A stretch of DNA of 46,941 nt from Escherichia phage ECO111 5-P, in sequence record OR844768; one strand, 5' to 3'. Below the pieces are notes generated by a model. The model ran no database searches. It saw nothing but the letters and a program-made list of their open reading frames with translations, and was not told where the DNA came from. The number at the start of each line of letters is the position of its first letter. Positions within the stretch are counted from its first letter, which is position 1. The position numbers were made by a program, and so were the translations under genes. Below, piece by piece: positions 16,081-16,179 of this stretch.

Positions 16081-16109
16081 AATCTACATCACCACCATAT
16101 CTACGTCAA
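16081..16109 (-). promoter_or_regulatory. minus-strand promoter TTGACG-N17-TAGATT (spacer contains GTGGTG) driving yhhQ-like/dpdA-like operon
   Basis: Reverse complement of aatctacatcaccaccatatctacgtcaa. Confidence 0.55.
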
Positions 16110-16147
16110 CATTTATTATTGTTGTTGATAAATCTGCACCACCACAC

Positions 16148-16179
16148 TTGACCAATCTACACCGAGCGCATAGTATAAT
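16148..16179 (+). promoter_or_regulatory. plus-strand promoter TTGACC-N17-TAGTATAAT
   Basis: Consensus-like hexamers upstream of ATG 16208. Confidence 0.55.

Follow-up and report, generated by a model that had tools for sequence, protein, structure and literature searches.

An asymmetric 11-bp element recurs over presumed early promoters of a virulent Escherichia siphophage and may serve as an operator

Introduction

In phage phi29, protein p4 binds the divergent A2b/A2c–A3 region, over the early -35 element and immediately before a late promoter without a -35, and this single binding event represses early and favours late transcription. In T4 (MotA/AsiA) and in Thermus phage P23-45 (gp39), the promoters concerned carry a short asymmetric box at about -30 and a good -10 but no -35, and a small acidic factor (AsiA or gp39) disables -35 recognition, producing a switch to -35-independent promoters. 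On the IncP plasmid RK2, KorB and KorA act at one operator repeated at many promoters, which allows coordinate control, and these operators are palindromic. T4-type PeSL cassettes are longer promoter-plus-hairpin units situated between co-oriented genes. Here we describe an 11-bp element, AATCTACRTCA, that recurs at the heads of gene blocks in Escherichia phage ECO111 5-P (sequence record OR844768), whose whole analysed stretch of 46,941 nucleotides is referred to below as the window. The window (46.9 kb) represents all or nearly all of the genome of a virulent siphophage from the E1/Skate/Sf11/IME207/swi2/Sa179lw group, and it shares a patchy nucleotide identity of 88–92% with many Salmonella, E. 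coli, Shigella and Klebsiella phages.

With a probability of about 0.5, we propose that AATCTACRTCA is an asymmetric cis-regulatory unit lying over early promoters and bound by one clade-conserved trans-acting protein, with a repressive effect. Like the RK2 operators, the element recurs at numerous promoters in a compact mobile genome that also carries a KorB-like gene; unlike them, it is non-palindromic and persists where the ParB/KorB-like gene is missing. As with the PeSL units, conserved early-promoter sequences bracket hypervariable accessory cassettes, whereas the 11-mer is contained in bidirectional promoter regions that head opposite-strand cassettes. In kind, the element appears to be an ordinary regulatory motif, a clade-specific promoter/operator sequence. 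The motif was not found described in the literature searched, a coverage that did not extend to the 2008 genome paper of phage E1, where a prior mention is possible.

Results

Read as its reverse complement, TGAYGTAGATT, the element AATCTACRTCA joins a -35-like TTGAYG to a -10-like TAGATT. Strong sites were defined by a position weight matrix (PWM) score of at least 14.5 bits, with 200 first-order Markov randomisations as the control. The window contains 14 such sites, compared with a mean of 0.32 and a maximum of 2 in the randomised sequences, and the exact 10-mer ATCTACRTCA occurs 10 times against about 0.2 expected, as estimated from base composition. Moreover, an unbiased screen of all k-mers of the window returned TCTACGTCA(A) and ATCTACATCA as the top over-represented 9- and 10-mers. 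In the AATCTACRTCA orientation, the strong copies lie at 9943–9954(−), 9960–9971(−), 16081–16092(+), 16098–16109(+), 16154–16165(+), 16177–16188(+), 21577–21588(−), 21605–21616(+), 24014–24025(+), 24040–24051(−), 33090–33101(+), 33121–33132(+), 36437–36448(+) and 38178–38189(+). All 14 are intergenic and confined to seven regions (9943–9971, 16081–16188, 21577–21616, 24014–24051, 33090–33132, 36437–36448 and 38178–38189), and weaker variants occur at 16131, 38224 and 46171. Every site listed in a preliminary description of the window is present, and the recurrence reported there stands out clearly from randomised sequence. A discrete, over-represented motif confined to regulatory regions is what is expected of transcription-factor operators.

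The element is asymmetric and non-palindromic in a logo pooled over genomes. Pairs of copies, direct or inverted, are spaced by 10, 17, 21 or 23–32 bp when the window and its relatives are taken together; in the window they are direct and 17 bp apart at 9943–9971 and 16081–16109, and direct or inverted at 23–30 bp elsewhere. A second shared stretch, resembling TTTATTATTGTTGTT, lies beside several junctions (16106–16128, 33077–33092 and 23996–24008), and, with up to one mismatch allowed, ATTTATTATTG is found 14 times where 1.7 occurrences are expected. This stretch may be an A/T tract similar to an UP element or the trace of a junction duplication.

The element is promoter-associated and heads both minus-strand cassettes and plus-strand blocks of small genes. 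Strong copies adjoin six of the seven small minus-strand cassettes and head three plus-strand early blocks (at 9943, 16148 and 24008). The preliminary description had placed the motif before every opposite-strand cassette and suggested that it coordinates the accessory cassettes. The first statement holds for these six, but the endonuclease cassette (41354–42229) and the replication block (1384–9358) have no copy at their heads; the second holds for the cassette promoters but is too narrow, as the promoters of plus-strand blocks are marked as well, so that essentially all promoters of the -35/-10 type bear the element.

The copies overlap core promoter elements in three registers. In the first, TTGACG serves as the -35 and is followed by TAGAT (copies at 9943, 16098, 21605 and 33121). 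In the second, TGAYG precedes TAGATT as the -10 (9960, 16081, 36437, 38178 and 24014). In the third, on the opposite strand, a TAnAAT -10 is fused to CTACRTCA (16177, 21577 and 24040, and in degenerate form 38224 and 46171). A promoter scan yielded nine sites with the arrangement of sigma-70 -35/-10 promoters, that is, a TTGACA-like hexamer, a spacer of 17 ± 1 bp and TAnnnT: 9943–9971(+), 16109–16081(−), 16148–16176(+), 21616–21588(−), 24008–24037(+), 33132–33104(−), 36465–36437(−), 38206–38178(−) and 9416–9388(−). Taken whole, this generic scan was not enriched over shuffled sequence. The promoter sites lie 20–110 bp upstream of the first gene of the same-strand block, with the exception of P4, about 500 bp from the tRNA genes, and they are thus placed and oriented as expected of promoters. 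In the literature searched, we found no 5'-end mapping data for the clade. The near-consensus sigma-70 arrangements reported earlier were recovered by the scan at P1–P4 and at the leftward promoters of junctions C and E, and the GTGGTG said to lie in the spacer is indeed found in four of the recovered promoters.

P1 (9943–9971, plus strand), at junction A, consists of two direct copies 17 bp apart, TTGACGTAGAAT-N5-TTGATGTAGATT, that form TTGACG-N17-TAGATT and are directed at the early block starting at 10002. P2 (16081–16109, minus strand) is likewise built of two direct copies 17 bp apart that form TTGACG-N17-TAGATT; it heads the cassette 14807–16053, and the same layout is found in Sf11, Skate and YX3973. 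P7 (16148–16188, plus strand), directly upstream of the p68 gene, reads TTGACC[AATCTACACCGA]GCGCATAGTAT[AATCTACATCAG] (copies in the outer brackets), with one copy in the spacer and the other joined to the -10/+1 region; nearby, at 16131–16142, there is a weak variant, AATCTGCACCAC. Junction C (21577–21616) contains the inverted pair TTGATGTAGATA ... AATCTACGTCAA and a minus-strand promoter, TTGACG-N17-CATAGT (21616–21588), for a cassette whose first gene starts at 21559. At junction D (24008–24051), TTGACC[AATCTACATCAT]...[TTGACGTAGATT], a plus-strand promoter, TTGACC-N18-AATACT (24008–24037), stands next to a minus-strand extended -10, TGGTACAAT (24049–24041), which is fused to the right copy. 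Junction E (33090–33132) contains two direct copies about 30 bp apart; its minus-strand promoter, TTGACG-N17-TATAGT (33132–33104), heads the cassette 30536–33063, and the second copy falls in the initially transcribed region. P4 (36437–36465) and P3 (38178–38206), both on the minus strand, read TTGACA-N17-TAGATT with one copy at the -10; P4 points toward tRNA-Ser and tRNA-Arg (35757–35926, minus strand), and P3 heads the cassette 37264–38154. The -35/-10-type promoters that bear the element are presumed to be the early promoters.

This overlap with promoter hexamers raises the main rival explanation, namely that the 11-mer is simply the optimised promoter of the clade, used by host RNA polymerase alone and with no dedicated factor. 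Under this explanation, which we regard as possible but somewhat doubtful, the bases outside the hexamers would tune the spacer or discriminator, and common descent together with gene conversion among the repeats would keep the copies alike. The -35-like and -10-like halves of the reverse complement agree with it, as do the nine TTGACN-N17/18-TAnnnT sites, which are correctly oriented to their genes. However, there is no known sigma-70 contact that would fix GTAGA at -29 to -25 or TGAYG abutting the -10, and the TG of TGAYG is one base off the extended -10 position. In addition, the same unit lies at -35, -10 and +1, and no single polymerase contact explains all three.

The extended -10 sites form a second class of promoters that complements the motif-bearing class. 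Eight plus-strand sites of the form TGnTAnAAT without a -35 (17537, 21626, 26382, 33141, 36472, 38218, 42332 and 46165) lie immediately upstream of the portal, lysis, head, connector, tail-tube, tape-measure, distal-tail and tail-fibre genes. Four of them, L1–L4, were aligned across relatives and are conserved, YX3973 included. L1 (21626–21634, plus strand), before the lysis genes, reads TGATAGAAT, has no -35 hexamer and is conserved in six genomes; the motif copy at 21605 occupies the place of its -35. L2 (33141–33149, plus strand) reads TGCTAAAAT and has the copy at 33121 in the -35 position. At junctions C and E, one and the same copy thus provides the -35 of the leftward promoter and lies at about -30 of the rightward extended -10 promoter. 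L3 (36472–36480, plus strand), upstream of the major tail protein gene, reads TGATATAAT, and L4 (38218–38235, plus strand) is TGATATAAT fused to the degenerate copy AATCAACATCAG. The predicted late promoter before the tail-fibre gene (46165–46182, plus strand) is TGATACAAT fused to the degenerate copy AATATACATCAA, a variant that is likewise found in Sf11, Skate and IME207. Among the small minus-strand cassettes, only that of the endonuclease (PHROG 681/HNH) lacks the motif; in its place, the head region has two extended -10 boxes back to back, a minus-strand TGGTACAAT at 42317 and a plus-strand TGCTAAAAT at 42332.

Conservation of the element was evaluated in ten relatives, drawn from phages of Salmonella, Shigella, Klebsiella, Citrobacter and 'Aeromonas' and from metagenomes: Sf11, Skate, IME207, SB28, Klebsiella phage YX3973, 'Aeromonas' phage pIS4-A, Citrobacter phage K1M, the genome-reduced seszw mutant and two metagenome contigs. 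All ten carry the same consensus at homologous junctions, with 6–15 strong sites each; the two contigs, which are partial, have the fewest, and SB28 has 15 strong and 12 exact copies. An independent k-mer screen of K1M again gave the motif as its top k-mer. The temperate Erwinia phage 59 shares the structural module and gene order and has no cassettes, and the motif scan found zero sites in it. In the logo pooled from 120 distinct sites of 10 genomes, positions 1–11 carry 1.0–1.9 bits and the flanks about 0 bits, a core value that is inflated because the PWM itself selected the sites.

Junction alignments of six genomes showed the same behaviour in detail. At junction A, Skate, IME207 and SB28 have an unrelated sequence upstream of the pair, and the 5–8 bp between the copies are variable, whereas both copies, TTGACGTAGAW and TGATGTAGATT, are invariant, so that GTAGA after the -35 and TGATG before the -10 are unchanged across the aligned genomes. 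At junction C of YX3973, the left copy has been flipped to the direct orientation, yet it is kept. Conservation beyond the -35 and -10 hexamers, proposed earlier from the window, is therefore seen both within the genome and across diverged relatives, and it points to a shared factor that recognises the element or to a promoter class specific to the clade, as the preliminary description had suggested. Conservation of positions that RNA polymerase does not need is a further property of transcription-factor operators. If host RNA polymerase were the only reader, it would be difficult to explain why all 11 positions hold while flanks and spacers drift. The element thus appears to be a unit rather than two hexamers.

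The promoter of the p68 gene is informative in this respect. Its layout, TTGACC-[copy]-N-TAnAAT/[copy], occurs in all lineages and is kept at P7 in IME207, SB28, K1M and the two metagenome contigs. IME207, K1M and contig L133 (Logan) have no leftward cassette at this junction, while contig L132 has small leftward genes between the terminase gene and p68. Both P7 copies point away from the p68 gene, and because they are conserved in IME207, K1M and L133, where there is no leftward cassette, they cannot be leftward -10 boxes. The simple proposal that every copy is the -10 box (TAGATT) of its own promoter fails for these copies, and at junction C the promoters it implies would converge. The spacer and +1 copies of P7 are also in the wrong orientation for a hexamer role, yet conserved, which weighs against a purely promoter-intrinsic origin. 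Their location in the spacer and at the start site corresponds to classic operator positions.

Cassette content varies among relatives at every junction, whereas the junction motif is constant, and the repeats could therefore be primarily recombination anchors, that is, short homologous boundaries for swapping promoter-plus-gene cassettes between phages, in the manner of the T4-type PeSL cassettes. The junction between terminase and p68 contains DpdA/YhhQ genes in the window, other genes in Sf11 and Skate and none in IME207, and junction F of SB28 has a different cassette (anti-repressor) with its own motif copy at the head. The bidirectional terminators that close the cassettes and the Sak4/Erf-type annealases encoded by these phages are in line with such exchange. 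However, 11 bp is very short for homologous exchange, and neither the precise overlap with promoter elements nor the P7 copies, where no cassette is exchanged, would be explained. Anchoring is compatible with a regulatory role rather than an alternative to it, and as the primary function it seems improbable.

A Skate-type alternative replication module carries two head-to-tail copies exactly 10 bp apart (TGACGTAGAT|TGATGTAGAT) before an internal gene, at 37710–37731 in Skate (L004), 38705–38726 in L005 and 7175–7196 in L131. Unlike this module, the replication module of the window has no copy of the motif.

Several proteins were considered as the binding factor. The preliminary description had named the Cro-like helix-turn-helix (HTH) protein encoded at 5723–5965 as candidate regulator. 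It is a genuine Cro/YdaS-type protein (Pfam YdaS_toxin/P22_Cro), and the divergent promoter region that contains its gene has TTGACG boxes; the gene accompanies one type of replication module. However, a tblastn search showed it to be absent from Skate, IME207, SB28, pIS4-A, K1M and seszw, each with 9–15 strong copies, and because these six genomes bear the motif, the protein is excluded as an obligatory partner. The cro promoter region (5589–5722) contains only two-mismatch look-alikes and no canonical copy, and the motif does not have the layout of a Cro/CI-type operator, that is, palindromic, bound by a dimer, clustered beside the repressor gene and accompanied by the factor. We consider operators of this protein to be a highly improbable explanation of the motif.

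The ParB/KorB-like protein (31624–32436, minus strand) is another obvious candidate and might act as a global repressor in the manner of RK2 KorB. It has Pfam HTH_ParB/KorB domains, its gene lies in a motif-headed cassette and is retained in the minimal seszw mutant, and its sequence is 99–100% identical in 113 phage records, the genomes of which are otherwise about 90% identical. Dimers of ParB/KorB proteins bind palindromic sites, whereas the element is asymmetric and lacks the palindromic 13–16-bp form and consistent co-presence of the factor expected of such an operator. Furthermore, SB28 (genus Macdonaldcampvirus) retains only a 44-amino-acid (aa) remnant of the gene, and its 15 strong and 12 exact copies show no erosion. 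The protein is therefore disfavoured, and we rate its role as the cognate factor as very unlikely. Protein p48 (10002–10148), encoded by the first gene after P1, was rejected as binder, being absent from pIS4-A and K1M. A site for a host transcription factor was also rejected: to our knowledge the element does not match the consensus of IHF, FNR/CRP, DnaA, MetJ, NarL or Fis. In a scan of bacterial genomes for motif pairs, the matches listed were scattered and unrelated, and among them there was no sign of a host regulon or of an alternative partner.

The remaining candidate binders are p162 and p68, although a third factor is also possible. p162 (24767–25255, plus strand) is basic (isoelectric point [pI] 9.8), matches PHROG 1687 'MarR family' (E = 2e-55) and is read from its sequence as two tandem winged-helix domains, in which the helix I101-K103-R105-R107 (I-x-K-x-R-x-R) is invariant across lineages. 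Its AlphaFold2 model was poor (predicted local distance difference test score 51), too low for a fold search. p68 (16208–16414, plus strand; 68 aa, pI 5.0) is an orphan protein with an HTH resembling sigma region 4 and may be either the binder or a factor directed at RNA polymerase. Its three-helix HTH can be superimposed on sigma domain 4, and it has no sigma region 2, the region for -10 recognition and core binding, being a single domain of 68 aa with no Pfam sigma match. Both proteins belong to very small families found only in this clade (16 clusters for p68, 9 representatives for p162). Pfam and PDB-sequence searches with p68, p108 and a 69-aa protein gave no significant match.

The genome layout was derived from the annotation of relatives and the conservation of open reading frames (ORFs). 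The replication genes (1384–9358) are on the minus strand, with the Cro-like gene (5723–5965) on the plus strand within their region, and are followed by a non-coding region of 640 bp. Plus-strand blocks of small early genes, terminase, portal, lysis, head and tail genes follow in this order, interrupted by minus-strand cassettes (14807–16053, 19934–21559, about 22830–23979, 30536–33063, the tRNA genes at 35757–35926, 37264–38154 and 41354–42229). Bidirectional terminators close the cassettes. The large AT-rich non-coding sequence between the replication block and P1 (9359–9940) contains a run of ten G (9606–9615) and GAAAGATGAAAGATGA repeats and may be a replication origin; its Skate counterpart (44700–45160) is non-homologous and bears iteron-like GGGATAA repeats. 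The tail-fibre/spike gene appears to leave the right end of the window (46207–46941) and to resume at its left end (1–1226), so that the window looks circularly permuted.

The cassette 14807–16053 (minus strand), headed by P2, encodes a protein that matches PHROG 887 'queuine tRNA-ribosyltransferase' (E = 6e-76), read as DpdA-like, and a Vut_1/YhhQ-type transporter, which together suggest a 7-deazaguanine DNA-modification module; other genes or none occupy this junction in Sf11, Skate and IME207. The tRNA-Arg(TCT) and tRNA-Ser(GCT) genes (35757–35926, minus strand) lie about 500 bp downstream of P4, and the intervening plus-strand ORF 36111–36431 may be a leader rather than a gene, because only some relatives annotate it. 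The two 238-aa proteins encoded downstream of junctions F and G were compared and are not paralogues. The temperate lambdoid Erwinia phage vB_EhrS_59 has the same head-tail gene order in one uninterrupted block, which suggests that the virulent clade arose by insertion of promoter-bearing opposite-strand cassettes into a head-tail module like that of phage 59.

Discussion

We propose that one phage protein binds single copies of AATCTACRTCA in a monomer-like manner. An asymmetric protein site fits the data because the 11 positions are conserved while spacers and flanks vary, and because pairs occur at varied spacing in either orientation. A protein bound to any copy would cover a -35, a -10 or a start site and should therefore keep RNA polymerase out, so that the early promoters would be shut off together. 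The late structural and lysis genes, presumably read from extended -10 promoters, would escape repression because these promoters need no -35 contact. At junctions C and E, where a single copy is both the leftward -35 and the -30 region of the rightward late promoter, binding could even flip the direction of transcription in favour of the latter.

Several points weigh against this proposal. Binding, repression and the identity of the factor are all deduced from sequence, and part of the signal is plain promoter consensus, since the reverse complement holds TTGACG and TAGATT. The pooled logo, as noted above, is inflated in its core. Moreover, all compared genomes belong to one clade, so that the co-occurrence of motif and protein is not independent evidence. 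No candidate protein is compelling. p162 is only 35–50% identical where the motif is unchanged (35% in YX3973/Klebsiella-type phages), and its gene is deleted in the viable engineered 36.6-kb seszw mutant, a genome-reduced phage described in PMC9825161. p68, for its part, is an acidic protein whose presumed recognition helix begins with Asp/Glu. Indeed, the motif is the same in phages of E. coli, Salmonella, Klebsiella and Citrobacter, while every candidate phage protein has diverged. Sigma-70 is essentially identical in these four hosts, and the observation thus speaks for the promoter-intrinsic explanation.

The nearest functional analogues of the proposed operator system are the p4 switch of phi29 and the AsiA/MotA or gp39 switches of T4 and P23-45. 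Membership in any of these families is not supported because there are no protein homologues, a box lies at -30 in only two of eight late promoters, and the motif is asymmetric. Junctions C and E have a geometry like that of the phi29 p4 switch, whereas p4 sites are inverted repeats at a single locus and the asymmetric 11-mer is found at at least seven loci, also over -10 and +1, and no p4 homologue was found in the phage. With the T4 system the phage shares a box at about -30 at L1 and L2, late promoters of the extended -10 type, a small acidic protein (p68) and a basic two-domain one (p162). In contrast to MotA-dependent middle promoters, the six other extended -10 promoters have no full copy at -30, and most copies lie on early promoters in repressive positions. 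Neither p68 nor p162 has a Pfam, PDB-sequence or significant fold match to suggest a MotA or AsiA homologue, and Pfam and PDB-sequence searches revealed no sequence similarity of either to MotA, AsiA or gp39. p68 also differs from AsiA and gp39 in that it resembles sigma region 4 itself, not a protein that binds region 4.

A more ambitious version would be a previously undescribed two-part switch akin to sigma appropriation, in which p68 and/or p162 read the 11-mer, an extended -35-like sequence, over the -35, -10 or start site of every early promoter. All early promoters would be silenced at once, RNA polymerase would be passed to the -35-independent extended -10 promoters, and the direction of transcription would be reversed at the bidirectional junctions. 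We regard this version as unlikely.

The group comprises Skatevirus, Cedarrivervirus, Shuimuvirus, Macdonaldcampvirus, Roufvirus and relatives. Its members are widely isolated for biocontrol of Salmonella, E. coli and Klebsiella, and one phage of the group has been used for genome minimisation; no description of their transcription programme was found in the literature searched. The 11-mer provides a ready map of the presumed early promoters and marks the points at which accessory cassettes are inserted. For phage engineering, it indicates which intergenic bases should be left undisturbed. Finally, the single operator-like unit proposed here suggests a testable model of the early-to-late switch, with p162 and p68 as its two named candidate proteins.
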